Virus record (IMG/VR): IMGVR_UViG_3300002498_000057 | DNA from: a virus | Lineage: Duplodnaviria; Heunggongvirae; Uroviricota; Caudoviricetes | Direction: 5' to 3' (one strand) | Length of the DNA: 64,000 bases | Shown here: one piece after another, positions 9,079-62,794 of the stretch | Position numbering within the stretch: position 1 is the stretch's first letter | Layout: every line of letters starts with the position of its first letter | Program-made: the position numbers and the translations under genes | Notes under the pieces: model-generated | Databases searched by the model: none | What the model was told of the DNA's origin: nothing | What the model saw: the letters and a program-made list of their open reading frames with translations, nothing else

Positions 9079-9116
9079 AAAATAATTGTGATAATGTTAG
9101 ACTAAATTGATATAAT
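9079..9116 (+). promoter_or_regulatory. conserved phage promoter motif copy 1 (AAAATAATTGTGATAA-N15-TATAAT)
   Basis: TTGTGA 9086-9091, 19-nt spacer, TATAAT 9111-9116 with TGn extended -10; SD GGGAG and ATG follow. Confidence 0.6.
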
Positions 9117-9137
9117 AATATTACAAGGGAGTAAAAA

Positions 9138-9422
9138 ATGGTTAGAATTACAGTAGAGTTATTACCGCATGGTAGTGAAAGTGCTAAAAGAAAAATTGCT
9201 AGTATGGATATTATCAATGATGGAACAGGTAATATTGATAATGGAAATTATAAATATAAAATATACAGTGTAGAGGCTTTAGGAATGTCAAAAGAACTTA
9301 GAAATCTTGATGTAATTAAATATAATGATGACTATAAAAATCACTTACGTAAAAAAGGTATTTGGAGCTTAATACATAATATATTTAAATCAATACCAGA
9401 TAATAGTTTAGATAGACCATAA
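9138..9422 (+). CDS. hypothetical protein
   Basis: ORF with own promoter and SD, no internal TAG/TGA, TAA stop. Confidence 0.5.
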   Translation: MVRITVELLPHGSESAKRKIASMDIINDGTGNIDNGNYKYKIYSVEALGMSKELRNLDVIKYNDDYKNHLRKKGIWSLIHNIFKSIPDNSLDRP

Positions 9423-9458
9423 AATAATTGTGATAAATCGCAAAATCATAATTATAAT
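9421..9458 (+). promoter_or_regulatory. conserved promoter motif copy 2
   Basis: TTGTGA 9428-9433, 19-nt spacer, TATAAT 9453-9458. Confidence 0.6.
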
Positions 9459-9491
9459 TAAACTATATTAAGAAAATATGAGGTTACTAAG

Positions 9492-10313
9492 ATGATTATT
9501 AAAACAGACAATTCGAATGTTATTGAAACTTTAAAGCCTTTTAGGGTTGCAGAGAAAGATATTTTTACTGATAAGTCTAAAGTAGACGGGTATAAAGCAA
9601 TTTGTTATGAACAGGATAATCGTCCAATTTGTATTGTATCAAATACCTATGGATTATTACAACACGATGAAGTAATACAGACCACTTTTGATGATTTAAA
9701 TAATATCGGGGTAAACTATGATGTTAAACAAGTTACATTAAATACTGGTTTAAAACGTAACACTATGGCAACTACTATAACACTGCCAGATCTTAAGATA
9801 AATGTTGATGGTAGTGATATTATCGGTACTATTTATATTCATAATGGAACAGACGGTATGACATCATTTACCCGTGAACTTGGATTTTATCGTAGCATTT
9901 GCCAAAATGGAATGAGAGTTCCACAACAATTACTTATATCTGAAAAGCTTAAGCATCGTAAGAATATTATAATGATGAACCTTGAAGAAGGAATTGAATC
10001 GATTACTAAGTATTTACCCAAGTTTGGAGAAATACTTGAAAAGGCACAACAAGTTAAATTAGACCAATTAAATTTAGATATTATGGCTAAAATGTTGCAT
10101 ATTGCTCCACGGGTATTTAATACTATTATATCTGGTGAATATGTTAATAAGTATAAAGATTTAATTGATGAACAAGCAGATATGAATACACTATGGGGAT
10201 TTTATCAAGTCATGACTAATTACCTTACACACTATGTCGCCAATAAATCTATTAGAACTGCTCAAGTTATGAATAGCCAGCTATATAGCTATATGCTTCA
10301 ACAAGTGGCATAA
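9492..10313 (+). CDS. hypothetical protein
   Basis: 273-aa ORF with SD GAGGT, stop-codon-free, TAA stop. Confidence 0.55.
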   Translation: MIIKTDNSNVIETLKPFRVAEKDIFTDKSKVDGYKAICYEQDNRPICIVSNTYGLLQHDEVIQTTFDDLNNIGVNYDVKQVTLNTGLKRNTMATTITLPDLKINVDGSDIIGTIYIHNGTDGMTSFTRELGFYRSICQNGMRVPQQLLISEKLKHRKNIIMMNLEEGIESITKYLPKFGEILEKAQQVKLDQLNLDIMAKMLHIAPRVFNTIISGEYVNKYKDLIDEQADMNTLWGFYQVMTNYLTHYVANKSIRTAQVMNSQLYSYMLQQVA

Positions 10314-10397
10314 GAATTTAATATTAAATAAATATCTAGACTATAGTAAAATATAACTTACTATAGTCTAGACTTATAATAACAATAAAGGGAAATA

Positions 10398-11468
10398 ATG
10401 GAAAGGTCATATTATTAGATACTGGGTGTTGATAAAACAGCTAATGTAGATTAGGTTAAAAAAGCTTATCGTAAACTAGCAATGTAGCACCATCCTGATA
10501 AGAACAATAATAATAAATAGTCATAGGATAAATTTAAATAGTTAAGTGAAGCATATGAAGTATTATCAGATCAACAAAAACGGCAACAATATGATATGTT
10601 TGGAAAAGGTGGAGTTAATACATCAAATATAAATGACATGTTTGGTCATGGATTTGGTTTTGAGTCTATATTTGATTCTATATTTAACCATAGAAATCCA
10701 TTTAATAGGCAACAACATCAACAACAACGAGTTGAAAAAAGTTAGGATCTTGTAATAGAAGTGTAGATAAATTTAACTGATACAGTATAGAATATTTAGA
10801 TTATTAAATAGATATAGTATAAAGTTAAGTGTAAAAAATGCAATGGAACAAAGTCATAGGATGGTAAAACTCATAATTGTACTACCTGTAATGGAACTGG
10901 TATAATTACAAGAGTTACTAATATGGGTTCAATGGTAATGCAACAGCAAATGACTTGTAATAGTTGCAATGGAGTTGGAAATGTTATATAGACCTTGTGC
11001 AGTAGTTGTAATGGAACTGGATTTTAGTTATAGAAAAAAAATATTAATATAACTATTCCAAGGGGTATAGAGTCTAATGTAAAACTTCAACTTAAAGACA
11101 TTGGAAATATTAATAAAGATAGGCCTGGTGATATAATTGTTATAATAAATGTAATTAATAACACAATATTTACTAGAGATAATAATAATTTAATATATAT
11201 TTACCCTATACAATATTATGATTTAATTCTTGGAACTAAGTTTATTTTAAAAACTATATATGATAAATAGCTTTAGATAACTATACCATCAGGGATTAAA
11301 GAGTCAATAAGTATACCTAATTAGGGCATATATAGTATATTTGTAAACAATAGTAATACTAGGGGTATATTACAAATAAATTTATAGTGTAAAATACCAT
11401 CAAAATAGTAGATTGAACAAAATTAGATTACATTATTATAGAACATAAAGGAGATCCGAAATGGATAA
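10398..11468 (+). CDS. dnaJ: co-chaperone DnaJ (J domain + Gly/Phe region + CxxCxGxG zinc-finger repeats), recoded
   Basis: SYY.ILGV..., [14 protein letters not shown] and [20 protein letters not shown]; four CxxCxG repeats ([31 protein letters not shown]); TAG at conserved Glu of DYYEILGV. Confidence 0.8.
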
Positions 11469-12884: not shown

Positions 12885-13160
12885 ATGTTAGACCATGAAG
12901 CTTTTCAAACATTAAGATAGTTACATGGATATTGTATTGCAAATACTAAAACTAATTTTAAAATAATAAATGAATTATTTAATGACTGTCAAAAGGTTAA
13001 TTAGGTATTGGAATTAGAATATACTTGTATTAAATGTGAAAAAAAGAGTAAACAATTTTGTAATAGTATATCATTCTTATATGGCTTCTTACCAATATGT
13101 AAAAAGTGCTTAAAAAAGAAAGGTACTAAAGCTAAAAATAATTGTGATAAAATTGAGTAA
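12885..13160 (+). CDS. hypothetical Cys-rich small protein (recoded)
   Basis: ATG after short spacer; two TAG codons; stop lies inside the next promoter motif. Confidence 0.3.
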
Positions 13161-13172
13161 GCTGAGTATAAT
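13133..13172 (+). promoter_or_regulatory. conserved promoter motif copy 3
   Basis: TTGTGA 13142-13147, 19-nt spacer, TATAAT 13167-13172. Confidence 0.6.
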
Positions 13173-13180
13173 ATAAATAT

Positions 13181-14046
13181 ATGGATAATTTAAACGGTAT
13201 AAGTATATATTAGTGCAAATATTGTGGAAAGTAGTGAAATACTTCAACTCAAAGAAATGGTCATCAAACTATGTGTAAAGCTAATCCAAAGTATGAATAG
13301 ATACACAATAAAATAAATGAAAAAAATAGTAATAGGATATGGCCAAATCAACAAATAACAAAAACATTCTTATGTAAAAAATGTAATAAATAGTATAGTG
13401 TAACAGCTACATAGTATGTATTTAATAAAGGTACTTATAAAAAACATTGTTCTATGGCTTGTTCAAATGCACATGTATGAACATAGTCGGGAAAATATAA
13501 ACTTAGTATTATTTGTAAAAATAGTGAAAAAGTATTAGCATTTAATAAGTCTAGACCTATAAAACCATATGTTCTTATTTGTGCTGTATGTAATAAATAG
13601 TACAGAGCTAGTACAGAGCTAGTAATGATAAGAATCCATATTGTTCAGTAAAATGTAAAAATATAGTAATACCTAGAAAAGTTGGGTCAGGTGGAAATAG
13701 ACCCGGGGCTGGTAGAGGTAAAGCGGGTTGATATAATGGAATTCAATGTGATAGTAGTTGATAGTTAGCGTATGTAATATATTGTTTATAGCATGATATA
13801 AAAGTATCACGGTGTAAATAGACCAGATATTATTAGTTTGAAGGTAAAGAATATAAATATTTTCCAGATTTTGTAGTAAATAATATAGTGATATAGATTA
13901 AAGGTTGATTAACTAAAAAAGATCAAGCTAAAATATAGAATAATAAAGATGTAGTTGTATTGCAAGAATGTGATTTAAAATAGCAATTTGACTACGTGAT
14001 ATCAAAGTACGGAATAGATTTTATAAAATTATATTAGAAAAAATAA
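13181..14046 (+). pseudogene. zinc-finger + PD-(D/E)xK endonuclease, split by a -1 frameshift caused by an 11-bp tandem duplication
   Basis: N-terminal CxxC fingers end at TAA 13647. The C-terminal part (CDSSWELAY...YFPDFVV..IEIKGW) is in a different frame from 13597. Direct repeat TAGTACAGAGC x2 at 13602-13623. Intact paralog at 35495-36310. Confidence 0.55.
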
Positions 14047-14059: not shown

Positions 14060-14131
14060 GGGTGACTCATCCAATGGTTAGGATCCTGGATTTCAACCCC
14101 AGTCATATGCGTTCGAGTCGTATGTCACCTG
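14060..14131 (+). tRNA. tRNA-Trp(UCA), opal-decoding
   Basis: Acceptor GGGTGAC/GTCACCT, anticodon loop TTTCAAC (UCA), T-loop TTCGAGT, discriminator G, CCA encoded. Confidence 0.85.
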
Positions 14132-14618
14132 CCATATTTTTTTAAATTAAAATAATAGAGGGTATTTAATGGAGCACAGATAGCATATTGTATTTGATGA
14201 TATGTATAATAATTATAAAATAATTCAATATGCATATTATTAGCCAACGAATATTAATAGATATGGTTTACATTACTTAGATATATAGAAAACAATAATT
14301 ATTAATAATTATACTAAGTTTGTATTTAAGATCCATTTAAATAATATATCTTTTACAAAATACAATAAAGATAAATTTATGTTATCTATAGTAAAAGTTG
14401 TTGATATTTTTGCAAATCATACTATAGAATTTCCAAGTATACTTATAAAAATATAGAATCCAAAAGAAGTTTAGAAGTATGTTGAATTTGATTGTAAAAA
14501 TCTTAAAATTGATAAATTAAAAGGTTTATTTGATAATATAGATATAGTGATTAATAAGTTTTTATAGCTATATAAATAGCCGTATATACTAAGTTAAAAA
14601 TGATAAAGAGGGGGTGTT

Positions 14619-15270: not shown

Positions 15271-15627
15271 TATATTATAATTAAAAACAATATAATCTTC
15301 TTTAACTATTTATATTATATTACTACTTACTAAATTTATTACCAGTACTTGAAAATATTTTTGCTTTTTCATTTTTACTCCATATATATTATTATAAACA
15401 TATTAAAAGGAATAAATCATTATGAAATATTACAAAATTTCTTAGGTCATGCAATTAACTAATTTATCTTATTATCATCTTAAAAAATGAGCTGACTAGG
15501 GACTAATATAGTAGAGTCGGCTACCCTCGGGGTATAGAGTCTATTCTTAGTAGCAGATTCAAAAAATATTTTAGTTTATAGGTGACAATAATAAAAACAT
15601 TAAGCATTGGACATTAACTAAGTAATT

Positions 15628-16986
15628 TTGAATACTATAAAACTTCCTTATATTATTGATACAAAAGAAGATATAGATTATATCATATGTCTTAGAAAGC
15701 AACAATCTAATGTCATTAGATTTTCTTATAATAGATTTAAAGATAAATTATCTTAGAAATAGATAAGATTGTTAATTAAAGATTTAAATAATATAAATAA
15801 CTTAGATAGTTGGTTTATACAATCTGCTATTAAGAAAGCATAGTATCTATATAAATCTAATCCAGATAAGAAAGTAATCTTCGGTGGTAAATCTAATTAT
15901 CTCAAGAGATTACAAAGTAAAATTACAAAAGAATAGTATAAGTAGAAAAGAATTTAGCCATTGTATGTTGTGGGATAGTCTCCAAAGAATGGTAATAGAA
16001 AGTTTAACTTAGATATTGACAATAACTGTCTAGTATTTAAACCGTATGTAAGAAGAAAAATTAAATTACAATTACCAAAATTACATAAAAATATTAAAAA
16101 ACAATTATTGTTTTTACAACAACAAGCAAAAGATAAACTTCTTGCTTATCAAATAGCTATTGATGCTGAGTTTATTTACATTTCTTTTGAATATGAAAAA
16201 CATACTATTGAATTAAATAAGAGTATTTACATGGGAATCGATTTGAATCCCCAATTTATTGGGTATTCAATAATCAAGGGTAGTAAAGTAATATATTCTA
16301 AAACTTATGATATTGGATAGATAATTACTAGAGTAAAATAGACTAAAGAATAGTCTTCATCCAAAACTAATAAATATTTAAATAATAAATTTAACCATGA
16401 AACTATTTAGATTTCTAAAGACATAATAAACAATTGTTTAAAATACAAAGTATCTAATATATTTATGTAGTCCTTAGATTTTACTAAATCATTTAAGTTT
16501 AAATACAAAGGTTTAAATAGATTGTGTCAAAACCTTTGAAAAAGAAATAAGTTTACAAGCAATATTCAAAAAAGATGCAATTCCTATGGCGTCAAGTTAT
16601 CATTTATCAATGGTGCATATAGCTCTACTATAGGAAATATAAAGTATAATTTATTCGATCCATGCAATTCAGCTATTTAGATAGCAAGACGTGGATACGA
16701 GTGTTATACTAAAAGACAAAAGAAATTTTATCCAAATTTAGTAGTTAAAAAAGAATTTAAAGATCAATGGAAGAAATATTTAAATTCTAAGACTATTGAG
16801 TTAGATAGCGTTTCAAATGAAGATTTATTTAAAAATACCTGGAAAGATCTTCATAATTACCTAAAAAATTCTAAAGTGAAATATAGAGTTTCTTTAAGTG
16901 AGTGTGACTTATTTAAAGTTTTTAGATTAAAGAATAAAAGAAGTATGGTAAAATTATATAGTTTTACTTAGTCTTTTATACTTTAA
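15628..16986 (+). CDS. tnpB: IS200/IS605-family TnpB (RuvC-like, zinc finger), recoded; probable TTG start
   Basis: RuvC-I MGIDLN, RuvC-II IFMESLD and RuvC-III FDPCNSAIEIARRGY; TGA inside NLWKRNK; many TAG; left-end hairpin at 15500-15540. Confidence 0.7.
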
Positions 16987-17099
16987 GTATTTTAGAACAA
17001 CTTCTGAAGAAAAAGCTATTAAAATAGCAAATGATAAACGAGTCCAAATAATATCAAATAATAATTGGGTAAATGGATACGAAGAAAATATCCAGTCTT

Positions 17100-17136
17100 A
17101 AAAATAATTGTGATAAATCTAGAGACTTAGATATAA
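17100..17136 (+). promoter_or_regulatory. conserved promoter motif copy 4 (inside TnpB right-end/omega-RNA region)
   Basis: TTGTGA 17107-17112, 18-nt spacer, TATAAT 17131-17136. Confidence 0.5.
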
Positions 17137-17277
17137 TAAAAAATATAAGTAAGAGCCAATAAGGTTATAGATGTGAATTTAAAAAGAGTTATTTTTATAG
17201 TAAAAAGCCCAAAACTTTGTATTGATATGCTAATCCAAGTAGACTTGGTTAATATGTAATATTTCTAACTCTTTTTA

Positions 17278-17314
17278 AAAATAATTGTGATAAATCTAGA
17301 AAGCTAGATATAAT
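17278..17314 (+). promoter_or_regulatory. conserved promoter motif copy 5, driving tRNA(CUA)
   Basis: TTGTGA 17285-17290, 18-nt spacer, TATAAT 17309-17314; tRNA 5' end 12 nt downstream. Confidence 0.6.
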
Positions 17315-17325: not shown

Positions 17326-17397
17326 GGAGTTATCGTTTAATGGCTAGGACCGCAGATTCTAAACCTGCAGATCGGGGTTCGATCCCCCGTAACTCTA
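17326..17397 (+). tRNA. amber-decoding tRNA(CUA) with Glu/Gln-type body (probable tRNA-Glu(CUA))
   Basis: Acceptor GGAGTTA/TAACTCT, D-stem GTTT/GGAC (U11-A24, U13-G22), anticodon loop TTCTAAA (CUA), 4-nt variable loop AGAT with A46, T-loop TTCGATC, CCA encoded. Confidence 0.85.
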
Positions 17398-17605
17398 CCA
17401 GATTCATAACCTATTTTTATGTGGGTTGGGTAGCTAAGGAGTATTAAAGAGGTAATATTACTTTAATAAAAACCACTTAAGGGATAATTAATATTTTTAG
17501 TGTAGCAGGTCAATTTCTAAAAATATTGAGTTATTCAAAATCTCCTAAATGAATCTTTTATTTACCTCAGGTATCACAATGGTTAGTGAGTCTGAGCTTA
17601 TTTAT

Positions 17606-18127: not shown

Positions 18128-18484
18128 GGGGATGAAATGGATTCGACATAGTGAATAGGATAGAGAAACGAGTAGAGAATGATTGTGATACTCTCAAAAC
18201 TCAATTAAAGTTAAAATAGTTAACGACAACTTACTACAAGCTGCTTAATTGCAGACTATCATAACTGAGGTTCTCTGATTTGTAGATTATGATAGTAAGA
18301 CCATAATCAGACTTATCCAATAAGATAGTCTTAGTAATTGGATATAGTATACAAGGCATTACATAATTTAGGTTTGCACAATTGTCCTTCTTATGTGATT
18401 ATTAAACAATTATGCTATACTCGTAAGTGATTTCTTGAAAGTAAGCATTATGGACCCGAGTATCGAAACTCGGCATCTCCACCA
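18128..18484 (+). ncRNA. ssrA: tmRNA (SsrA)
   Basis: 5' GGGGATGAAATGGATTCGAC and tRNA-like 3' end GGACCCGAG-TATCGAAA-CTCGG-CATCTCC-A-CCA; internal tag frame (V)NDNLLQAA-TAA. Confidence 0.8.
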
Positions 18485-19081: not shown

Positions 19082-19104
19082 CCATACTTTGTATGTTTTA
19101 AACA

Positions 19105-19197
19105 CTATAATTAATCTTTGGTGGAGAGTTGATCACTCTTAGATATTTCGTTAATATCATGGAAATGTAGTAGTTCGAATCTACATTATAGTATTTA
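19105..19197 (+). repeat. ~93-nt repeat family R2, copy a (tRNA-like/structured RNA candidate)
   Basis: About 93% identical to 23628-23722; hairpins AGAGT-TGATC-ACTCT and ATGTAG-TAGTTCGAAT-CTACAT (T-arm-like). Confidence 0.35.
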
Positions 19198-19205
19198 AGT
19201 TTTAT

Positions 19206-19279
19206 ATTCCTATAGCTCAGTTGAATAGAGCAAATGCCTTCTAAGCATTAGGTCGTTGGTTTGAGTCCAACTAGGAATG
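19206..19279 (+). tRNA. tRNA-Arg(UCU)
   Basis: Acceptor ATTCCTA/TAGGAAT, D-arm GCTC-AGTTGAATA-GAGC, anticodon loop CTTCTAA, CCA encoded. Confidence 0.85.
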
Positions 19280-19387: not shown

Positions 19388-19408
19388 CCAATTATTTTCA
19401 TATTTTTA

Positions 19409-19446
19409 AAAATAATTGTGATAATTTCTAAAGTTGTGGATATAAT
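19409..19446 (+). promoter_or_regulatory. conserved promoter motif copy 6
   Basis: TTGTGA 19416-19421, 19-nt spacer, TATAAT 19441-19446. Confidence 0.6.
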
Positions 19447-19481: not shown

Positions 19482-19751
19482 ATGGGAAGATACGAATGTT
19501 GTAATTCATATGGCTGTTCTGCAGGATATTGTCAAGGTGTGGCTAGAATTAAAACTAAATATACCTTATCACAAGCATTAGAATGTATGCGAGATAATAT
19601 TACAATGATTAATAGCGCATACGATAATGAATATATTATTACAAAGATTTTGGATAAAGATGTTCTTGTCGACGTTACAGATTCTGATAATTATATTTAT
19701 GAAACTGAACTAGATTTACTTGAGCTTGAAGCTGTTTGGTATGTTAAATAA
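19482..19751 (+). CDS. hypothetical Cys-rich protein
   Basis: ORF with SD AGAGGT, TAA stop. Confidence 0.5.
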   Translation: MGRYECCNSYGCSAGYCQGVARIKTKYTLSQALECMRDNITMINSAYDNEYIITKILDKDVLVDVTDSDNYIYETELDLLELEAVWYVK

Positions 19752-20962: not shown

Positions 20963-22330
20963 ATGTCGAAAGTTAATGTAAAGGTTGCTTATCCAAATCC
21001 TAAAACACATGGAGATGGTATTGCGTCAAAACTTACTAAGTTAGAAGAACTTCGTAGAAGTGTATTATCTAATATGCTTTGGGAAAATGAATTTTATGAA
21101 GACGGCGAAAGTATTGCAACTAGAATAACCAATTTAGCGAATACTGTTGATCCTAACAAGGTAGCTGATTTGGCTATTGAAGCAAGAGAACAAATGAAGT
21201 TAAGACATGTACCATTATTGTTATGTCGTATTCTTGCAAAAAGAGGTTATAAGGTAGCAAATACTTTAGCTAGAGTTATTCAAAGACCAGATGAACTTAC
21301 TGAATTTTTAGCTATTTATTGGAAAAATGGCAAAGAACCTTTATCAGCTCAAGTTAAGAAAGGACTAGCGTTAGCATTTACAAAATTTGATGAATATCAA
21401 TTAGCTAAATATAATAGAGATGAAAATATTAAATTAAAAGATGTATTATTTTTATCCCATGCAAAACCCCTTACTGATGACCAAGCAAATGTCTGGAAAA
21501 GATTAATTGATGGTACCATAGAAACTCCAGACACCTGGGAAGTAGCATTATCAACTGGTAAGGATAAGAAAGAAACTTTTGAAAGACTTATTACTTCAAA
21601 AAAATTAGGCGCATTAGCGTTAATACGTAACTTAAGAAAGATGGAAGAATCAAAAGTTGACAATAATATTATAAAACAAGCATTACTAGATATGAAAGTT
21701 GATAGAGTATTACCATTTAGATTCATTGCGGCAGCAAAACATGCTCCAAGATTTGAGCAGGATCTTGAACAAGCAATGTTTAAGTGTCTTAGTAATGGTA
21801 CTAAGTTACCTGGTAAAACTATTTTAATAATAGATATTTCTGGTAGTATGCATGGTCAATTATCATCTAAATCTGAAATGAGTAGATATGATGCTGCTAA
21901 TTCATTAGCTATTCTAGTAAGGGAAATGTGTGAAAATCCCGTAATATATGCTACAGCTGGAAATGACGGTAGAAGAATTCATGCAACAGCTTTAGTTCCA
22001 AACAGACGTGGATTTGCATTGCCAGACGCTATTATGAACATGAATAGTACTCTTGGTGGTGGTGGAATATTCTTAAAGCAAGTAATGGATTATGTATATG
22101 ATAAAGAGCATGATGCAGATAGAATTATAATTATTACAGATGAACAAGATTGTGATAATAGTAACGTAAATGCACCTGCAAATGCTAATGCCTTTGGGAA
22201 ACAAAATTATATTATAAATATTGCTTCATATAATAGAGGTATAGCATATAATAAAAAATGGATCCATATTAGTGGATGGTCAGAAGCGGTATTAAATTAT
22301 ATAGCACAATATGAGTTAATGGGTAATTAA
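20963..22330 (+). CDS. rsr: Ro60 ortholog (TROVE domain + C-terminal vWA/MIDAS), Rsr-like
   Basis: N-terminal LTKLEELRRSVLSNMLWENEFYEDG (TROVE); C-terminal ILIIDISGSMHG MIDAS motif; SD AAGGAG; no TAG/TGA. Confidence 0.8.
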   Translation: MSKVNVKVAYPNPKTHGDGIASKLTKLEELRRSVLSNMLWENEFYEDGESIATRITNLANTVDPNKVADLAIEAREQMKLRHVPLLLCRILAKRGYKVANTLARVIQRPDELTEFLAIYWKNGKEPLSAQVKKGLALAFTKFDEYQLAKYNRDENIKLKDVLFLSHAKPLTDDQANVWKRLIDGTIETPDTWEVALSTGKDKKETFERLITSKKLGALALIRNLRKMEESKVDNNIIKQALLDMKVDRVLPFRFIAAAKHAPRFEQDLEQAMFKCLSNGTKLPGKTILIIDISGSMHGQLSSKSEMSRYDAANSLAILVREMCENPVIYATAGNDGRRIHATALVPNRRGFALPDAIMNMNSTLGGGGIFLKQVMDYVYDKEHDADRIIIITDEQDCDNSNVNAPANANAFGKQNYIINIASYNRGIAYNKKWIHISGWSEAVLNYIAQYELMGN

Positions 22331-22667: not shown

Positions 22668-22836
22668 CAAAATATTTTTAATTTTTTTAAATATAATGAT
22701 ATTTATATATAATATACATAAAGGAATATAACATGAGAAAACATCAAATTAGTCCATTATATTATTCACTCAATGCTAAAGGAGAATTTAGCTAAGGGTA
22801 CTTTTATGTGTATATAACATAGTATAGATTTTAAAG

Positions 22837-22867
22837 GTACCAATAAAATGGTACCTTATTTTTTTGA
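22837..22867 (+). terminator. rho-independent terminator
   Basis: GGTACC-AATAAAAT-GGTACC hairpin followed by TTATTTTTTT. Confidence 0.6.
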
Positions 22868-22874
22868 AGTTTAA

Positions 22875-22912
22875 AAACTAATTGTGATAATTCTAACAAC
22901 ATTGGTTATAAT
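22875..22912 (+). promoter_or_regulatory. conserved promoter motif copy 7
   Basis: TTGTGA 22882-22887, 19-nt spacer, TATAAT 22907-22912. Confidence 0.6.
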
Positions 22913-22949: not shown

Positions 22950-23231
22950 ATGAAATATTCAAAAGTAGTTAAAAAGATGATTGAAAAGTTTGAAAAAGAG
23001 TGTCAAGAAATATTAGAAGACAAGAGTTTTACCTTAATGTATCGTATTGAAACTGATGGTGATAATGATATTCTTTATGTAGATGCTGATCTTTATGATG
23101 TTTTTACTTATGGATACGCAGATTTTAAATTTGGAAGTAAGCTATACACTGAAATTAATGAAGCTCTTGATAAATTAAATGTTGTGCTTGAAGATCAAGG
23201 TGGTGGAGTTTTTAAGTTTTTTAAAGTATAA
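22950..23231 (+). CDS. hypothetical protein
   Basis: ORF with SD GAGGT, TAA stop. Confidence 0.5.
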   Translation: MKYSKVVKKMIEKFEKECQEILEDKSFTLMYRIETDGDNDILYVDADLYDVFTYGYADFKFGSKLYTEINEALDKLNVVLEDQGGGVFKFFKV

Positions 23232-23435
23232 AAAAGAGGTTATAAAAAATGAAATGTGTATATGATCCAACATCAGGAAATATTTATCGTATGACTAACC
23301 GACAAGCAAAATATATTATTTTAAAATATGGTAAAGATGGTGTTAAGTATATTTCTAAGTCTATATGGAAAGAGACTGGAAGAAAAACTGAAGCTAATCG
23401 TATTAATGGAATGTATAGATAAAATAAGCTTTAAT

Positions 23436-23616: not shown

Positions 23617-23627
23617 ATGTTTTTAAA

Positions 23628-23722
23628 ATATTATAGTTGATCTTTGGTGGAGAGTTGATCACTCTTAGATATTTCGTTAATATCGTGGAAATGTAGTAGT
23701 TTGAATCTATACTATAGTATTT
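23628..23722 (+). repeat. repeat family R2, copy b
   Basis: Paralog of 19105-19197. Confidence 0.35.
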
Positions 23723-23739
23723 TAAATTTTATAATAAGT

Positions 23740-28405: not shown

Positions 28406-28459
28406 CTCTTGATTAAAACATAGATTATTCAATGTAAATTTAATTTTTAGATAGATAAT

Positions 28460-41774: not shown

Positions 41775-41814
41775 TAGATATAATAAAATTATATTTAAAA
41801 AAGAGGTTATAAAA

Positions 41815-43881: not shown

Positions 43882-44129
43882 GATGGTTGGTAAAATAATA
43901 TTGATTGTATGGCTAATTATAACAGCAATTTGTCTTATACCGGGTGCAATTTGTTTTGGTATTTTGATTTTACTTGAATCTATATTTAAGGTAAATACGA
44001 AAATAATGAAACATCGTAACGTCAGTTAAATAATTGTAATAAACCATAAATAGACAAGTATAATTTAAGTAAAGGAGATATAAAATGAAGTTTATTAAAT
44101 ACAATGAAATTGAAAACTCTACAAACAAA

Positions 44130-45134
44130 ATGATTTATGAATTTAAACAATCAACATTGTATAATCCAACTGATATTTGAGTTGTAACCATCAAAATTCA
44201 TGGAAGCAATTTCCAAATTATAAGAGCCGACGATGGACAATTGGTGCCAGCTAAAAGAACTAATACTCTGGAAATGACATCTTCTTTCTTTAACTTTCAA
44301 TCAATATTTGATAGATATGATTATAACAAATTAATGAATAATATCTTAGAATTTGCAAAAATACACTATCCAGATTTTTTGGGTGGAATAAGTATTCATG
44401 GAGAGCTTTGTGGTGGTCATTATCCTGGAGCAGAAGTAGTACCAAATGCAAAAAAGGTTCAAAAAGAAGTAGCATACTCAAATAATACAGAATTAATAGT
44501 ATTTGATATACGACTAACCTCGACTGATAATGATGATTACTATATATTTATTCCGCATTATCAAATAATTAAGCTTTGCAACGATTGTAATATCCCAGTA
44601 GTTCCTATTATATTTGAAGGTACTTTAGATGAATGTTTAAAGTGGTCTAGCGAACATAATGCTGACCCCTGTGAAATATGGAAAATATTTGGTATGGATC
44701 ATGAAGTAGAAAATAACATTCGTGAGGGTCATGTTATTAAACCGGCTATTAAGACAATATTTAAGGGCCAACATCGTATGATATTTAAAGATAAGAATGA
44801 TAAATTTAAAGAAAATAAAGGTAGCAAAGAAAAAAATGCAGTACCAAAAATTACTTACAGCGATAATATGATTTATATCTTAGACAATATTGATACTATG
44901 ATTTGCATTAATAGGTTTAATTCTGTTACTTCAAAATTTGGTGAATATAGTATTAAAGATTTTAGACTATTAATGTTATTTATGATTGAAGATATTTATG
45001 ATGAACTTAATAGATCTATAGATTTAAAAGAATTATTTGATACTTTAACTAATGTTGAAAAGAAAGAATTGAATGATATTTTGAATAAAAAGATTGCTAG
45101 TTTTATGGGCGCAAATAAAAAAGAATTATTTTAA
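44130..45134 (+). CDS. Rnl2-family RNA ligase (start uncertain; one in-frame TGA=Trp at 44178)
   Basis: DIWVVTIKIHGSNFQ aligns to T4 Rnl2 GEWVAREKIHGTNFS (motif I KxHG, W from TGA); motif IV EGHVIKP; motif V KIFKDKNDKF. Confidence 0.7.
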
Positions 45135-45896: not shown

Positions 45897-46091
45897 ATGA
45901 GTGATAACCAACAAATATCTGGTAGTGGAATAGGGTGTGCAACACTGCTATTTTTTATATTTTTAGTATTAAAGTTGACTAATGTAATTACTTGGTCTTG
46001 GTGGTGGATATTTGCACCATTATGGGGGACGGCACTACTAGTTATTATTTGTTTAATAGTAATATATCTATTTTTGAAAAAGTATCAATAA
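45897..46091 (+). CDS. hypothetical small membrane protein
   Basis: SD AAGGAGAT; two TM segments. Confidence 0.35.
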   Translation: MSDNQQISGSGIGCATLLFFIFLVLKLTNVITWSWWWIFAPLWGTALLVIICLIVIYLFLKKYQ

Positions 46092-46819
46092 TGTTAGATA
46101 CATCTATTAAAATTGTAGTATTGACTGGCTCTGGAATAAGTGTAGAGTCTGGTTTATCTACATTTAGAGGCCTGGGTGGTATTTGGGATAAATATGATCC
46201 AAATAAAGTTTGTTCTTTATCTGGATTTATCCATGATCCAATAACGGCATGGAAATTTAATTCAGAACTATATCTACAATATGCAATTGCAAAATCAAAC
46301 ATTGGTCATAAATCATTAGTTAAATTACAATATTATTTATATAACGGCAAACTTACTATCATTACTCAGAATATAGATGGATTGCACCAAGCCGCTGGTA
46401 GTGAAAATTGTATTGAAATGCATGGTAATATTCATAGAACCAGATGTAATGGCTGTAACTATATCACAAACACAAATAGTATTGTATGTAAATTTATGAG
46501 TAATAGTACTACACCAATATGTCCAATTTGTGGAGATTTACTAAGGCCTGATGTTGTAATGTTTGAAGAAATTCCAAAATATAAACAAGCTATAGATATG
46601 GATATTTTAAATTGTGATTATTTTATTCAGATTGGAACTAGTGGTAAAGTTAGACCAGCTAGTACTCTTATTTATATAGCAGAAAGTATTGGAGCTAAAT
46701 CAATAATATTAAATAAAGAAAAACCTGATAACATTACAGAAAATAGTCAATTTTATCAATGTAATAGTGGTAATGATATTGATAAATATATCCAATTACT
46801 TATCAATGGAGAGATATAA
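46092..46819 (+). CDS. Sir2-family NAD-dependent deacylase (sirtuin)
   Basis: VVLTGSGISVESGLSTFRG, TQNIDGLHQAAGS, HGNIHRTRCNGCNY...CPICG, LRPDVVMFEE. Confidence 0.75.
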
Positions 46820-47232: not shown

Positions 47233-47377
47233 TATTTACTTAAACATCCAACTAAGAACTTATCACAAAAACAAAAAGATAAATTAATTTAGTCAATACA
47301 AACTGCTAAATTAGAGGCAGAGTTTAAAAGAAAATGTTTTGGTGATCAAGGCAATCCAGAATATTTTGGACACAATT

Positions 47378-47414
47378 AAATAATTGTGATAATTTTAGAG
47401 CTACAGTATATAAT
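47378..47414 (+). promoter_or_regulatory. conserved promoter motif copy 11
   Basis: TTGTGA 47384-47389, 19-nt spacer, TATAAT 47409-47414. Confidence 0.6.
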
Positions 47415-47446: not shown

Positions 47447-47680
47447 ATGAATAAGCAATATAGATGCTATGAATGTGAAACTATTTTTGAAAATCCAGAT
47501 TGTAATTATTATGAAGGTGAACGATCTGAAGGGGTTGCAGAACCAGATGACTATGAAGACATTTGTCCAAATTGTGGAAGTACAGACTTTGAAGAAATAA
47601 ATACTTGTCTATACTGTGGAGTTGAAATTCCTATTGATGAAGAATATTGCATAAATTGTCAAGAAGATGATGATGTATAA
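47447..47680 (+). CDS. hypothetical acidic zinc-ribbon protein
   Basis: CYECE...CPNCG...CLYCG...CINC; SD AGAGGTGG. Confidence 0.45.
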   Translation: MNKQYRCYECETIFENPDCNYYEGERSEGVAEPDDYEDICPNCGSTDFEEINTCLYCGVEIPIDEEYCINCQEDDDV

Positions 47681-48891: not shown

Positions 48892-48930
48892 AAAACTAAT
48901 TGTGATAATTTAAACTTATGTAATTATAAT
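48892..48930 (+). promoter_or_regulatory. conserved promoter motif copy 12
   Basis: TTGTGA 48900-48905, 19-nt spacer, TATAAT 48925-48930. Confidence 0.6.
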
Positions 48931-49305
48931 TACAATATATTAAGAAATACGAGGTTACACTATGATAAATAGCTTTATGGATGCATATAAATACGAGAAA
49001 GATGGATGGGAATTGTATTACGATGGTATGCATAATGATATTGTTGTAAGAGTAATTAATGATGATTATAGATTATCACATGATCAACTTAAACAACTTG
49101 AAGATTTCGTAAAAAAGATATAAGGAAAACTAAAAATGGTTATCACAACATTAATTACAATACTATCACTAGTCTATGCCATTCACTATACACGAAAGTC
49201 TTATATTGCGATTAAGATGAAGGACTATGGTTTATATATTAGTTGTACGTTTATGAGTATTGTTATGATTATGTGTTTTATTAAAGGAACTATGGCTGTT
49301 ATATA

Positions 49306-49794: not shown

Positions 49795-51018
49795 ATGAGT
49801 AAAATGATAGAAATTACCGGTAAACATGGCTCTGCCAAAATCTTTACCAACAACATTGAGGAACAAGCCATTTCTCAGCTTTACAAAATTTTAAATAGCG
49901 AAGTTGCTATTGGTGCTAATTTGAGAATCATGCCAGATTGTCACGCTGGTGCAGGTTGTGTTATTGGTACCACTATGAAAATAACTGACAAAGTTATACC
50001 CAATTTTGTAGGAGTAGATATTTCATGTGGTGTTTTAGTTCAACAAATCAAAGATACTCATATTGAATTGGAAAAATTAGATAAAGTTATTCATCGAAAC
50101 GTTCCAAGTGGATTTGCTATCAATAACAAACCTCATCGTTGGGCTAATGATTGCCGAATTGGTGAATTAAAATGTAAAGACTTTGTAAATCTTAAACGTG
50201 CATATCTTTCTATCTCATCTCTTGGTGGAGGTAATCATTTTATATCCATAGAAAAAGATGATAACAATTGTCATTATTTAATAATTCATACTGGCTCAAG
50301 AAACATGGGCAAGCAAATAGCTGAATGCTATCAACAGGCTGCATATGATTTAATGACTAGCAAGAGAGAAATCTCTGATGAATTAATTAAGAAGCTTAAA
50401 AAAGAAGGTCGTGAAAAAGATATTAAAACTGAGTTGTCTAAAATTCAAATCATTCAAGTTGAGAAGTCTATGGCATATTGCTCTGGACAGTTAATGGATG
50501 ATTATTTGCATGATATGGCTATTGCCCAAGAATATGCTTCTCTTAATCGCAAGGCTATTGCAGATACTATTCAATGTGGTATGAGATGGAAGGTTGAAGA
50601 TGAATTTGAAACACTTCATAATTATATTGAAATGGATACTATGATATTACGTAAGGGAGCCGTATCTGCTAAGAAGGGTGAGAGATTAATAATACCTATT
50701 AATATGCAAGCGGGTAGTATTATTGCCACTGGGAAGGGCAATGAAGACTATAATTATTCTGCACCACATGGCGCCGGTAGACTTATGTCTCGTAAAGGAG
50801 CTAAGGAATCGTTATCAATGGACGACTTCAGAGAATCAATGAAAGGTATCTATACTACTTGTGTAATGAAAGATACTTTAGATGAATCCCCTATGGCGTA
50901 TAAGCCTATGCAAGAGATTATAGATAACATAGGTGATACTGTAGATATTGTTAAGATCGTTAAACCAGTATATAATTTTAAGGCTTCGGAAGAAGATGAT
51001 AGAAAGAAGAGGAAGTAA
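49795..51018 (+). CDS. rtcB: RtcB-family RNA 3'-phosphate/2',3'-cyclic-phosphate ligase
   Basis: MPDCHAGAGCVIGT, GVDISCGV, GGGNHF, APHGAGR; 407 aa; SD GAGGAT. Confidence 0.85.
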   Translation: MSKMIEITGKHGSAKIFTNNIEEQAISQLYKILNSEVAIGANLRIMPDCHAGAGCVIGTTMKITDKVIPNFVGVDISCGVLVQQIKDTHIELEKLDKVIHRNVPSGFAINNKPHRWANDCRIGELKCKDFVNLKRAYLSISSLGGGNHFISIEKDDNNCHYLIIHTGSRNMGKQIAECYQQAAYDLMTSKREISDELIKKLKKEGREKDIKTELSKIQIIQVEKSMAYCSGQLMDDYLHDMAIAQEYASLNRKAIADTIQCGMRWKVEDEFETLHNYIEMDTMILRKGAVSAKKGERLIIPINMQAGSIIATGKGNEDYNYSAPHGAGRLMSRKGAKESLSMDDFRESMKGIYTTCVMKDTLDESPMAYKPMQEIIDNIGDTVDIVKIVKPVYNFKASEEDDRKKRK

Positions 51019-55350: not shown

Positions 55351-56181
55351 ATGAAACTAATAGTTTTAGGCGCAGGTTCAGCATTTTCAATGAAGCAGTA
55401 TCAATCTAACTTTTTATTAGATTTTGATGGATATAAAATGCTTTTTGATTGTGGTGGAGATATACGATGGGCATTAAAAGAACAAGGATTAAATGTTAAT
55501 GATATAGATGGAATAGCGATATCGCACTACCATAGCGACCATATCGGTGGACTTTAGTGGGTAGCTTTAAATAGGTTCTTTAATAAATCATTACCAAAAC
55601 CTGATTTATACATTTCTGAAAACTTAGTTGATGATTTATGGTCAGATTGTTTAAAGGGTGGTTTATCCACATATCAGGGTTGTGTATTACGATTGCATGA
55701 CTATTTTAATATTATAGCAATTCCAGAAAATGAAACAATATCGATAGTTAATAATGATGATGAATTTGTAGGTTGGGCTATGACTCCTGTTCAAACAGTT
55801 CATATTATGTCTGGATATAAAATCATGCCTTCGTATGGTATTATACTTGAGAGAAATCCACAAATACTGGGTTCAAAAATATATAAAATAAATAAATTAT
55901 ATATAACTTCAGATACACAATATTGTCCATATCAAATCAGAGATTTCTACGCAAGTGCGGATTTGATATTAGAAGATTGTGAAACTGCTGAATTTAAATC
56001 ACATGTTCATGCTCACTATGAAGATTTAAAAACATTAGAACCAGGATTCAAAAATAAGATGTGGTTATATCATTATAATGATCAACCTTGGGGCTGTGCA
56101 TCATTCGAAGCAATGCAACAAATGGCACAGCATGATGGATTTTTAGGGTTTTTAAGGCAAGGTCAAGTGCTAGAGATATAA
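55351..56181 (+). CDS. MBL-fold metallo-hydrolase, RNase Z-like, with a single in-frame TAG at 55555
   Basis: VLGAGSAFS...LFDCGGDI and SHYHSDHIGGL[TAG]WVAL; the frame joins track ORFs 55351 and 55693 into one 276-codon CDS. Confidence 0.65.
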
Positions 56182-59806: not shown

Positions 59807-59910
59807 GGAGTAAAATAATGAATTTATTCAATGAAATAATGAAAAATGATATGCTACCATGCATTTATACAGTGTGCATAGCTATTGATCCAGAAGCAAA
59901 TAAGATTTTA

Positions 59911-59948
59911 AAATAATTGTGATAAATAACTATAATCTAGATATAATT
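59911..59948 (+). promoter_or_regulatory. conserved promoter motif copy 13
   Basis: TTGTGA 59918-59923, 19-nt spacer, TATAAT 59943-59948. Confidence 0.6.
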
Positions 59949-59967: not shown

Positions 59968-60153
59968 ATGAAAAAATTATCAATAGGTAATTGGTTCGTA
60001 ATTATAGTTGCAGTAATTATTGCATTTATTTGTGTTTATGGCATATTCTTTAATTCAAATGTCATTGATTTCAAAAAGCATAATACAGTAGATACAATTC
60101 AGGTCATAACTGATTATGCCGAACCTGTAATTGATACAACCGTGGTTAAGTAA
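59968..60153 (+). CDS. hypothetical small membrane protein
   Basis: SD AAGGAGGT. Confidence 0.4.
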   Translation: MKKLSIGNWFVIIVAVIIAFICVYGIFFNSNVIDFKKHNTVDTIQVITDYAEPVIDTTVVK

Positions 60154-60211
60154 TACTAAAGTGGTCTGTAGGTAAATTATAACTATATCTATAGACCACC
60201 TATTTTTGCTC

Positions 60212-60249
60212 AAAATAATTGTGATAAATACCAAAAATCTAATTATAAT
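60212..60249 (+). promoter_or_regulatory. conserved promoter motif copy 14
   Basis: TTGTGA 60219-60224, 19-nt spacer, TATAAT 60244-60249. Confidence 0.6.
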
Positions 60250-60280
60250 ATAATTATATTTAAGAAAAAGAGGTTATACC

Positions 60281-60763
60281 ATGAAACAATTAAAAGATCA
60301 ATTTGTTACCGTAACATATGCAAGGGCTGTAAGTCAACCATCTGGTAGTGTTAGGGGTAAAAAACAAACATATAAAGCATTGGTGTTAAATGTAACTGAT
60401 ACTACAATATCGGTACGTATGATAAAGTCTCAATGTTATGTTGATATATTATATAAAAAATGCGGTTATAGTGTAACCCACCCAGATTTTATTAAATTTA
60501 TGAAAGATTGTCGTAATGCATTAAATATTGGATATACTATACAAGAAACTGGTGTAGTATCGATTCCATTAAATATTACCTTTTCAATAGAATCGTTTAA
60601 AAAAATGAATCCTATTATCATTAATAAAAATACATTATCTAAAGATGAATTATTAATACTTGAAGATCAAATTCAAATAATGCACAAAGATTTAGCACAT
60701 TCTTGTTGGTTTGATAATGATAACGATTGTATGAGATGGTACAGAAAATATATTCCAAAATAA
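60281..60763 (+). CDS. hypothetical protein
   Basis: SD AGAGGT; stop lies inside the next promoter motif. Confidence 0.45.
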   Translation: MKQLKDQFVTVTYARAVSQPSGSVRGKKQTYKALVLNVTDTTISVRMIKSQCYVDILYKKCGYSVTHPDFIKFMKDCRNALNIGYTIQETGVVSIPLNITFSIESFKKMNPIIINKNTLSKDELLILEDQIQIMHKDLAHSCWFDNDNDCMRWYRKYIPK

Positions 60764-60794
60764 TTGTGATAGTTTGAAGTCGTATAAATATAAT
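60757..60794 (+). promoter_or_regulatory. conserved promoter motif copy 15
   Basis: TTGTGA 60764-60769, 19-nt spacer, TATAAT 60789-60794. Confidence 0.6.
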
Positions 60795-60820
60795 TAATTT
60801 ATATTTAAAAGGAGACGACA

Positions 60821-61891
60821 ATGAAATTATCAGAATCTAATATAACTATACTTAATGATCATATTACTAATGGTAATATAAGAGTTGCAAAGCATCCAGA
60901 TTATGAATTATACTTATATAAATATACTCAGCAATGTGTATTTAATGGTATATGGGATGATGTTACATTAATGTGTAGAGGTTTAGTATTAGATAATGAA
61001 TATAATATCATTGCAAATTGTATTCCAAAGTTTTTTAATTATGAAGAATTAAATCAAGTAAGAGTTCCAAATATTAATTTAAATCAGGCTTTTACAATTA
61101 CACGAAAAGACGATGGAAGTTTAATTCAAATATTCATGTATAAAAATAATTTAATAACAACTTCATCTGGTGGATTTTGTAATGACTATACAAAAAAAGC
61201 TGAAGAATTACTTAGTACAAAATACAAACATATTATTCCAATAATTACAGATTCACCAGATTTAAATTTTATATTTGAAATGATTTCTCCATTAACTAAA
61301 GTGGTTATAAACTATGAGGATACTGAAGAATTAAGACTAATAACTATTAGAGATATGGATGGACTTGAATTTTCTAGGTTTATTGAATGGTGTAAAACTC
61401 AAGGATTTGATTATGTCCAGGAAGAGAAATTTTACTCTATAGTCCAGTTATTAGTAGAAAAAGTATCAGAGTTTAAAAATATCGAAGGTTATGTTATAAA
61501 GTTTGAAGATGGGCAACGTGTAAAGTTTAAGTATGATGAATATTTTACATTACATAAAACAATAGCTCATGTAAGTAAAAAGTTTGTATGGGAAGCATTA
61601 GCTAATAATATAGATTTAAACTTAGAAAATATTCCAGATGAAACATTTAAACAGATTAAACAATGGAAAAAAGAACTTGAAGATGAATTTAATTTTATTG
61701 AAGATGCAGTTGTAAAGGCTAATAGGCGGGTGTCTATTGCATCAATAAATGGAGTCTTCAATAGAAAGCAACAAGCAGAATTTATCTTAAAAAATTATAA
61801 AGAATACTCTCAAATGCTATTTGCTATGTTAGACGATAGAGATATTGAGCCTATGATATGGAAAAAAATTAAACCAAGTAATGAGGACTAA
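60821..61891 (+). CDS. Rnl1-family ATP-dependent RNA ligase (T4 RnlA-like)
   Basis: Motif I ITRKDDGSLIQIF (compare T4 KEDGSL), motif IV EGYVIKFEDG, motif V RVKFKYDEY; 356 aa; SD AAGGAGA. Confidence 0.7.
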   Translation: MKLSESNITILNDHITNGNIRVAKHPDYELYLYKYTQQCVFNGIWDDVTLMCRGLVLDNEYNIIANCIPKFFNYEELNQVRVPNINLNQAFTITRKDDGSLIQIFMYKNNLITTSSGGFCNDYTKKAEELLSTKYKHIIPIITDSPDLNFIFEMISPLTKVVINYEDTEELRLITIRDMDGLEFSRFIEWCKTQGFDYVQEEKFYSIVQLLVEKVSEFKNIEGYVIKFEDGQRVKFKYDEYFTLHKTIAHVSKKFVWEALANNIDLNLENIPDETFKQIKQWKKELEDEFNFIEDAVVKANRRVSIASINGVFNRKQQAEFILKNYKEYSQMLFAMLDDRDIEPMIWKKIKPSNED

Positions 61892-62281
61892 TGGTAAATA
61901 TACAATCTGAATTAGTATATTAGGTTAGATAGACGTCTGATTTAATAATGATAAAAGTATAGAATTGTCATGTAAATTGTTTTAAAAATAAAAACATTTT
62001 AACATTTTAGTGGTACCGTGATGGTGTGTAGAATGTGTATAAATATATTTATATTGCATATGATATATAGTTAAAATTAACAAAAACAAATATAGAAAAT
62101 TTAATTGTTAGTTATCAGGATTCATACAATAAATTAAATTTAAATAAATTATATATGAATAATGTTATTATTAATTTTTATAATTACAAATTAAAGGATA
62201 GTGGAGTATTATCATTTTCAATTCAATTTGATAATGATATTAGTAAAGTTATAACTATCAAACTAAAATAAGGAAGATAAA

Positions 62282-62557
62282 ATGAATATTAAATTTAGGT
62301 ATTTTGGTGATACCAGCATATCAAAAGGCACTGGTAAAATTGTTGTAGCGTATGATGATTTTAAGCGATGTGGAATTGCATTTTGCAATCCTAACGATGT
62401 ATATAGTAAGAAGACAGGTAGAAGTATTGCAGCGTATAGATTACTTAGTAATCCAATTAAAGTATTAAAAGATGATATGTCATATGGAGATTGGATTGAT
62501 TTGTTTCTAGATGCAACTCATGCACCAAATTGGTTATATCGGGATCAAACAATTTAA
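62282..62557 (+). CDS. hypothetical protein
   Basis: SD AAGGAAGAT. Confidence 0.4.
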   Translation: MNIKFRYFGDTSISKGTGKIVVAYDDFKRCGIAFCNPNDVYSKKTGRSIAAYRLLSNPIKVLKDDMSYGDWIDLFLDATHAPNWLYRDQTI

Positions 62558-62756
62558 CATGCATACTGATAAAAATAGAATATATGTTGGTGTTGGAAAT
62601 TGAACTTTAACAGCATAGTATAATAAAGTGTTATAGGATATTATTAATTATATTCATACCAATATATGTTATGATGATGAGGATTGAAGTAACTTATAGA
62701 AGTTAGAATAGTTTATTAAATCTAAGAAAAAACAATAATATCAGGTGTAAATGGAT

Positions 62757-62794
62757 ATAAAAATTGTGATAATTTGCACAACACAACATATAAT
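62757..62794 (+). promoter_or_regulatory. conserved promoter motif copy 16
   Basis: TTGTGA 62764-62769, 19-nt spacer, TATAAT 62789-62794. Confidence 0.55.

Follow-up and report, generated by a model that had tools for sequence, protein, structure and literature searches.

A repeated TTGTGATA-N17-TATAAT module as a probable early promoter class in a jumbo phage with apparently reassigned TAG and TGA codons

The 64,000-nucleotide stretch of viral DNA analysed here (hereafter the window; Caudoviricetes, IMG/VR record IMGVR_UViG_3300002498_000057) contains numerous copies of a bipartite module, in which an invariant TTGTGATA block is set at a fixed distance upstream of TATAAT. The position and orientation of these copies, their perfect -10 element, the terminators lying upstream of them and their conservation at orthologous positions in diverged phages make it very likely that they are promoters. 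With less assurance, we favor the view that they represent a class of early promoters read by the host RNA polymerase with its housekeeping sigma factor, and that they launch a switch of the genetic code. The window comes from a jumbo phage of 256 kb: it is contained at 100% identity in a 256,585-bp contig (ENA ERZ27315036 k141_100919), and the same phage is also present in JGI 3300001567. The G+C content of the window is 27%, all its genes are on the + strand, and it includes 28 tRNA genes. Megablast searches with 11 kb of the window against GenBank phages returned no match, and no relative of its Rnl1 protein was found in IMG/VR. The top cellular relatives of the phage DnaK (7072-8979), at 62-64% identity, come nearly all from Candidatus Cloacimonadota, suggesting that this phylum probably includes the host of the phage, or else the donor of its DnaK gene.

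The module stands out clearly from chance expectation. The sequence AATTGTGATAA, with up to one mismatch, matches the window 29 times, with 28 of the matches on the + strand, the expected number being 8.3; TTGTGA-N19-TATAAT under the same tolerance has 17 matches as against 3.0 expected, and the exact core TTGTGATA-N17-TATAAT occurs 15 times as against 0.03 by chance. When the full module is defined by at most one core mismatch and a spacing of 18-19 nt from TTGTGA to TATAAT, 18 copies are recovered in the window, of which 17 lie within 9079-62794, including those at 41746-41784 and 44026-44064, and one lies outside it at 6653-6691. A first-pass annotation of the sequence had recognized the repeated module but counted only sixteen copies; its statements that all copies are on the + strand (18/18) and that the spacing is 19 nt except for two copies with 18 nt are borne out, the latter being the near-duplicates at 17100 and 17277 and the former value holding for the remaining 16. 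All 18 copies are situated at gene junctions. There are 11 further near-matches to the core without TATAAT at the right distance, of which the one at 53855 is intergenic and the other ten fall within coding sequence.

In the aligned window copies the information content is restricted to AAAATAA-TTGTGATA(A) and TATAAT, with an unconstrained spacer between them. Taking TATAAT as -12 to -7, the A-rich AAAATAA falls at about -45 to -38, a position corresponding to the proximal subsite of the UP element, whose consensus extends over about -40 to -60. The invariant TTGTGATA occupies -37 to -30, with TTGTGA at -37 to -32, and its GTGATA portion fills the canonical -35 slot, separated from TATAAT by a spacer of 17 bp. 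Both hexamers match TTGACA at four of six positions (GTGATA at 17 bp, TTGTGA at 19 bp), no copy has TTGACA itself, and a generic sigma-70 scanner scored the copies at 10/12 in the register GTGATA-17-TATAAT. The earlier contention that a 19-nt spacer is too long for sigma-70 is therefore weak, given that GTGATA matches equally well in the canonical 17-bp register and is accompanied by an A-tract at the UP position. Some other types of signal were considered and set aside: a CRP-like or Fur-like dyad around TGTGA or TGATAAT, because the aligned copies show no second half-site; and a T4-like late promoter, TATAAATA, which is neither enriched nor positioned before recoded genes. The Bacteroidota-type promoter (TTTG at -33, TAnnTTTG at -7) does not fit the copies either, as TATAAT is followed by A/T-rich sequence with no TTTG.

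The surroundings of the modules are those of transcription unit starts. A Shine-Dalgarno (SD) sequence and an ATG, the latter 20-37 nt past TATAAT, follow 14 of the 18 copies, so that the arrangement claimed earlier for every copy, with a distance of 20-35 nt, holds for most but not for those at 17277, which leads into tRNA(CUA), 17100, 6653 and 13134. In the last two the ATG is only 11 and 8 nt past TATAAT, respectively, with no SD, and the corresponding mRNAs (6692-6703 and 13173-13181) may be leaderless. Terminators comprising a hairpin and a T-run, with energies of -15 to -21 kcal/mol, are found directly upstream of four modules. Of the 16 protein genes that come first after a module, 14 contain no TAG, compared with 43 of the 97 other genes (Fisher one-sided p = 0.0012).

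Proceeding along the + strand, with the start of TTGTGA given second and a spacing of 19 nt unless stated, the copy at 6653-6691 (6661) is followed by its SD-less ATG at 6703 and then by tRNA-Thr (6937-7011). The copies at 9078-9116 (9086), behind a terminator hairpin at 9052-9067, and at 9420-9458 (9428) precede a TAG-free gene at 9138-9422 and a TAG-free DUF932 gene at 9492-10313, respectively. Downstream of 13134-13172 (13142) are the SD-less ATG at 13181, which opens a recoded zinc-finger open reading frame (ORF), and, 0.9 kb further, tRNA(UCA). The two near-duplicates with 18-nt spacing, 17100-17137 (17108) and 17277-17314 (17285), stand in tandem; the former has no recognizable downstream product, the region of about 140 nt that follows it (17138-17276) neither matching Rfam nor folding significantly (z = -0.64), with a mini-ORF, ATG-TGA-ATT-TAA, as its sole feature. 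The latter ends 11 nt 5' of the mature end of tRNA(CUA), the first gene of an array with Ile, Val, tmRNA, Gln, Asp, Arg and Cys genes which extends to ~19390, where the next module is encountered. This copy, at 19408-19446 (19416), precedes a TAG-free gene (19482-19751), and those at 22874-22912 (22882), with an upstream terminator at 22834-22857, and 29876-29914 (29884) are each followed by TAG-free genes (22950-23422 and 29943-30152) and then by tRNA genes, which form a cluster in the first case and are tRNA-His and tRNA-Ser in the second. TAG-free genes likewise follow the copies at 39080-39118 (39088; gene 39150-39413) and 41746-41784 (41754; gene 41815-42024), the latter having its A-tract replaced by the T-run of a terminator (hairpin 41719-41745). 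The copy at 44026-44064 (44034) is a variant, TTGTAATAA, and precedes the Rnl2 gene (44085-45134). Further TAG-free genes follow at 47447-47680, 48962-49123 and 59968-60153, behind the copies at 47376-47414 (47384), 48892-48930 (48900) and 59909-59947 (59917), respectively. The copy at 60211-60249 (60219), behind a strong terminator hairpin (60161-60199), serves a TAG-free gene at 60281-60763, which is directly followed by a second variant, TTGTGATAG, at 60756-60794 (60764) and the TAG-free Rnl1 gene (60821-61891). The last copy, 62756-62794 (62764), precedes genes at 62822-63923 and a gene for a glutamyl-tRNA synthetase (GluRS)-like protein just beyond the window.

The module also furnishes stop codons to some upstream genes. 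Its first TAA terminates the genes at 6046-6660, 38608-39087 and 60281-60763, of which the last two had been pointed out previously; a further case proposed then, 12885-13160, has its stop within the spacer of the module at 13134. In AAA-TAA-TTG-TGA-TAA the two TAAs and the TGA all share one reading frame, contrary to the earlier description of TAA in two frames. The remark on stop codons was thus partly right, but it overlooked that this phage uses TGA and TAG as sense codons.

Conservation beyond the window further supports the promoter interpretation. Three more copies occur in the 9.5 kb past its end (L061 12819, 16447 and 20256), and two related phages, L303 (a 262-kb contig) and L313, whose proteins are 55-70% identical to those of the window phage and whose GluRS-like proteins are 55% and 56% identical, respectively, together have eight copies, namely six in 21 kb of L303 and two in 3 kb of L313. 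In the 29 copies that the three phages contribute, conservation of TTGTGATA is 96% or higher, with TATAAT present in 29/29, the 19-nt spacing in 27/29 and AAAATAA at -45 to -38 in 27/29, while the spacers are unrelated. Orthologous genes (58-70% amino-acid identity) upstream of GluRS are preceded by a module in all three phages, the position of the copy at 62756 being orthologous in L303 and L313, and in all three another module is present 3' of the GluRS gene. Exact-pattern scans of viral, metagenome and genome contigs yielded only single chance matches and no multi-copy carrier; the matches were accounted for by one duplicated gene in L196 and by coding repeats rich in Asn. A profile of the GluRS clade detected 72 loci in IMG/VR, all at no more than 43% identity save one 73-residue fragment (48%), and none with the module. 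A different sequence, TAGATAAT(T/A)TA, is found upstream of GluRS in all three module phages (L061 ~10960-10990, L303 ~9840-9870, L313 ~1640-1660), and in L313 it is enclosed by a strong terminator hairpin; it may act as an independent control element of GluRS.

The meaning of TAG and TGA is relevant to the modules because it decides which genes a naive cell can express. ORFs under the standard code cover little of the window, the + strand coverage doubles when TAG is read through, and with TAA as the sole stop the + strand ORFs span 54 kb of the window. TAG is dense in 56 of the 113 window genes (for example 159-1550, 3197-5752, 7072-8979 and 10398-11468), reaching 8.7% of codons, and TGA is sparser. 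Two classes of genes can hence be recognized: a TAG-rich class, including DnaK (7072-8979), DnaJ (10398-11468), EF-Ts (36426-37040), a class II ribonucleotide reductase and a DnaB-like helicase; and a class free of TAG and TGA, including Ro60/TROVE, RtcB, Rnl1, RlaP, Sir2, SPFH, DUF932 and many small ORFs. When the 23 TAG columns of DnaK are compared with 110 cellular homologues, Glu accounts for 45% of the cells (background 8%) and Gln for 9%, and at 9 of the 23 sites, including those in the invariant NAEG, GIET and QGER motifs, Glu reaches at least 86%. In the ribonucleotide reductase most homologues have Glu at 37 of 74 TAG sites, among them the catalytic NPCGE, and most have Trp at 13 of 14 TGA sites. 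Codon usage is in agreement with these assignments: per 1000 codons, TAG-containing genes have 28 GAA, 6 GAG and 51 TAG, and TAG-free genes 53 GAA and 9 GAG, with the same usage of CAA and of CAG in both; similarly, the TGG (6.7) and TGA (6.3) of the recoded class together equal the TGG (12.5) of the other class. At the position of the single TGA in the phage Rnl2, the T4 Rnl2 has Trp (GEWVAREKIHG). Taken together, the alignments and codon frequencies indicate that TAG is read as Glu and TGA as Trp, with TAA as the sole stop. The initial assumption that TAG encodes Gln (code 15) was ruled out by the same homologue alignments and codon usage.

The probable agents of this recoding can be identified in the same region. 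The tRNA(CUA) gene (17326-17400, + strand) that heads the tRNA/tmRNA array reads TAG, and tRNA(UCA) (14060-14134, + strand) reads TGA and has the discriminator G73, as in bacterial tRNA-Trp. Both suppressor tRNAs have a G1-U72 pair. The tRNA(CUA) further resembles tRNA-Glu in its D-arm, with U11-A24 and U13-G22, and its variable loop is of 4 nt; in E. coli tRNA-Glu these features are identity elements for GluRS. The GluRS-like gene (448 aa; L061 11114-12460, that is, 238-1584 nt past the window end) contains no TAG and no TGA. The clade formed by its nearest relatives (P0002-P0031; 42-58% identity) consists mostly of full-length proteins, with three fragments (P0029, P0031 and the 408-aa P0027). 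The members of this clade have only the catalytic Pfam domain, whereas canonical GluRS align over the catalytic 67-70% only and additionally carry the anticodon-binding domain PF19269; tblastn against GenBank phages found matches to the catalytic domain alone, at no more than 44% identity. All GluRS-clade loci that were fetched and tested show the signature of ORFs with TAG as a sense codon, and five have a tRNA(CUA) nearby. The phage protein is a candidate for the enzyme that charges tRNA(CUA) with Glu.

The suppressor tRNAs, a synthetase gene free of recoded stops and a recoded genome together constitute a code-change module. As in those described from other phages, the recoded genes would depend on the suppressor tRNAs and synthetase, with the standard code used early and the alternative code later. 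Unlike them, this system has TAG as Glu rather than Gln, recodes TGA as well, and has a GluRS-like synthetase with a non-canonical C-terminal part; furthermore, no release factor is seen, and the suppressor tRNA has an assignable promoter. In phages whose code is unlike that of the host, Borges et al. describe only TAG-to-Gln and TGA-to-Trp changes, from which the present phage departs. Our literature search turned up no report of TAG-to-Glu in a phage, nor a description of the pair TAG = Glu and TGA = Trp for any phage, so that a code switch of this kind appears to be undescribed so far. In a public protein collection the DnaK of the phage (P0121) has Gln at all 23 TAG positions, as per translation with code 15; database proteins of this phage lineage are thus systematically mistranslated, since TAG is rendered as Gln.

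These observations can be combined in a mechanism in which the host RNA polymerase with its housekeeping sigma would read the module soon after infection, and the standard-code first cistrons would be translatable in the naive cell. The same promoters would also transcribe the tRNA arrays, including the clusters near 22.9 kb and 29.9 kb, with one copy firing directly into tRNA(CUA). The TAG/TGA-containing cistrons downstream, often on the same mRNA, would become translatable only after the suppressor tRNAs had accumulated, and presumably the GluRS-like enzyme would be needed before that point as well. Cistrons with TAG often overlap or abut a preceding TAG-free cistron (33421, 45340, 46820, 56182 and 61891) and hence probably share an mRNA with it, which suggests that the timing of expression is set partly at translation. 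That transcription starts at the modules, that it does so early and that a particular polymerase and sigma read them is what we infer from the arrangement: as the modules serve cistrons readable by the unmodified cell and a suppressor tRNA required by most other genes, their reader must exist at the start of infection, and the host housekeeping holoenzyme is the simplest candidate. The proposal made in the first-pass annotation, that the module is a promoter, is upheld by its position, orientation, -10 element, upstream terminators and conservation; the further step to a phage-specific sigma or activator is not compelled by them.

The early promoters of T4 are among the closest precedents. They are read by the host sigma-70 holoenzyme, and their extended consensus, which is specific to the phage, is accompanied by an A-rich tract upstream. 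The modules resemble them in their many near-identical copies, perfect -10, A-rich block at the UP position and phage-specific -35 consensus that is not the host optimum, and in serving small early genes and tRNAs, often behind terminators. They differ in having TTGTGATA in place of the GTTTAC or TTGACA-like element of T4 and a host that is probably a member of Cloacimonadota rather than Escherichia coli; moreover, the module would also gate a code switch, and its recognition by the host enzyme is proposed here from the arrangement of the sequence. The early promoters of T5 and of the SPO1/phi29 type are likewise bipartite and abundant in the early region, with a 17-bp spacer (comparable to the GTGATA register) and an upstream A-tract; however, they have -35 hexamers of the TTGACA/TTGCTA type, none of which is found in the phage window.

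Several observations weigh against recognition by the host housekeeping holoenzyme or against the strict separation of early and late cistrons. TTGACA-N17-TATAAT with up to one mismatch has no match on either strand of the 64-kb window as against 3.3 expected from shuffles, and in view of this lack of near-consensus canonical promoters it is not evident that a polymerase preferring TTGACA reads the module. Flanks included, the invariant block measures 8-13 bp and exceeds an ordinary -35 contact in both length and rigidity. A literature search found no promoter consensus described for Cloacimonadota, the probable host phylum; a search for TTGTGATAA as a promoter element also found nothing relevant. 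Phages of the GluRS clade at no more than 53% identity lack TTGTGATA and pair the same TATAAT with a different upstream element, indicating that this element tracks the phage lineage: in the TATAAT promoters of L306, L308, L309 and L311 its place is taken by an A-rich block together with a T-tract and a G conserved at -14 (…AAGAACTTTTTTCAAAAAnTAGT-TATAAT). A -35-like block and a G at -14 are, however, the two classical routes to recruiting a primary sigma factor, a point in favor of the host holoenzyme. As to the cistrons, the ORFs at 6703 and 13181 contain TAG and TGA, and the Rnl2 gene (44085-45134), although devoid of TAG, has one in-frame TGA at a conserved Trp just before the KIHG ligase motif, which would have to be read as Trp, so that its synthesis should need the UCA suppressor. 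Finally, the inspection for transcription factors covered about 74 kb of the 256 kb (~30% of the genome).

The foremost competing explanation, which we hold to be possible but distinctly less probable, is a factor-dependent promoter, in which TTGTGATA would be the site of a phage sigma or activator replacing the -35 contact while the host core still uses TATAAT, much as MotA and AsiA act at T4 middle promoters; the factor would come from an even earlier gene or be injected with the DNA. The element is invariant and asymmetric, reaches beyond the -35 hexamer and is identical in three phages at 55-70% protein identity, and this, along with the complete absence of canonical TTGACA promoters from the window and the exchange of the upstream element in the more distant GluRS-clade relatives, is what such a factor would lead one to expect. 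Related loci also encode ADP-ribosyltransferase and PARP-like proteins, and ADP-ribosyltransferases modify RNA polymerase in T4. Against this, Pfam searches of the window proteins found no sigma factor (Sigma70_r2/r4), RNA polymerase subunit, MotA or AsiA, so that the search for a phage-encoded sigma recommended earlier has come out negative for the window, and the precomputed Pfam annotations of the flanks list no sigma factor, MotA, AsiA or recognizable transcription factor. The module is like T4 middle promoters in that a lineage-specific 9-bp element stands in for the -35, its distance from a -10 of the sigma-70 type being fixed; however, TTGTGATAA, centered near -33 and 16 nt from TATAAT, differs in both sequence and spacing from the MotA box, (a/t)(a/t)(a/t)TGCTTtA, which is centered near -30 at 11-13 nt. 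The -10, being the universal TATAAT, speaks against a promoter for a phage sigma of the SPO1 gp28 or phiEco32 gp36 type, for which a -10 departing from the host consensus would be expected. Moreover, the module drives genes for the naive cell and a suppressor tRNA and so should work at time zero, and the -35-slot reading with an UP-like tract explains the geometry without a new factor.

A more encompassing scheme, which we advance only tentatively, is compatible with either reader. In it a single promoter class and a two-codon code switch would run the temporal program: TTGTGATA-N17-TATAAT would fire from the start, read either by an unusual Cloacimonadota sigma with a TTG-N21-TATAAT geometry or by a dedicated phage factor, and would produce mixed operons whose translation is decided by promoter-driven tRNA(CUA), tRNA(UCA) and a phage GluRS with a replaced anticodon-binding part, with TAG as Glu and TGA as Trp.

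It is improbable that TTGTGATA is instead an operator, such that the promoter would consist of the A/T-rich tract and TATAAT and a phage repressor would shut the early units through TTGTGATA after the code switch. The relatives that manage with TATAAT and A/T tracts in the absence of TTGTGATA are compatible with this, as is a block conserved more rigidly than promoter strength alone requires; but the site is single and asymmetric, with no dyad or direct-repeat partner, no candidate repressor has been identified, and the copy without an A-tract (41746) retains TTGTGATA, suggesting that the block is needed in initiation itself. That the modules are not promoters at all but ends or remnants of mobile elements, or recombination or packaging sites with a chance TATAAT, is very unlikely: IS607/TnpB-type elements and other repeats do occur in the window, but conservation is limited to two short blocks and the distance between them, amidst unrelated flanks and spacers, the orientation is strictly that of the genes, the distance to the SD and ATG is fixed, and the copies are neither paired nor inverted.

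On the whole, the recoding context matters more than the promoter module itself. With the module, a promoter consensus open to testing becomes available for a lineage of uncultivated jumbo phages. Indirectly this extends to Cloacimonadota, for which no promoters have been described. The module also marks the starts of early transcription units in genomes that standard gene callers shred. A promoter placed on an amber-suppressor tRNA, together with the avoidance of TAG nearby, makes the model of an early standard and later alternative code testable promoter by promoter. Should TAG = Glu and TGA = Trp hold, in conjunction with a GluRS clade lacking the canonical anticodon-binding domain, this would be a new natural code and would comprise a natural orthogonal GluRS/tRNA(CUA) pair.

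Certain other features of the window deserve mention. The tmRNA within the tRNA array (18128-18484) was detected with Rfam RF00023 (94.7 bits) and missed by ARAGORN, which does call tmRNAs in the relatives L306 and L308, with the tags GETQLKAA and GETHKQAA. A direct repeat of 114-117 bp (19093-19206 and 23617-23733, 90% identity) lies within the two tRNA regions. Two elements of the IS607/IS605 type, at 15422-16986 and 27803-29623, are both TAG-rich, one encoding a MerR-type helix-turn-helix protein and TnpB, and the other a serine recombinase and TnpB. A 290-bp repeat (16705-16994 and 39834-40123, 93% identity) covers a TnpB 3' region, the sequence at 39.8 kb representing a third, partial copy. 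The window also encodes, in the standard code, a large set of RNA-repair and anti-defence proteins comprising Ro60/TROVE, RlaP, Rnl2, RtcB, Rnl1, a 2'-5' RNA ligase/Acb1-like protein, Sir2 and Apyc1 (20963-22330, 42856-45134, 49804-51018, 60821-61891, 6046-6660, 46022-46819 and 55351-56181).

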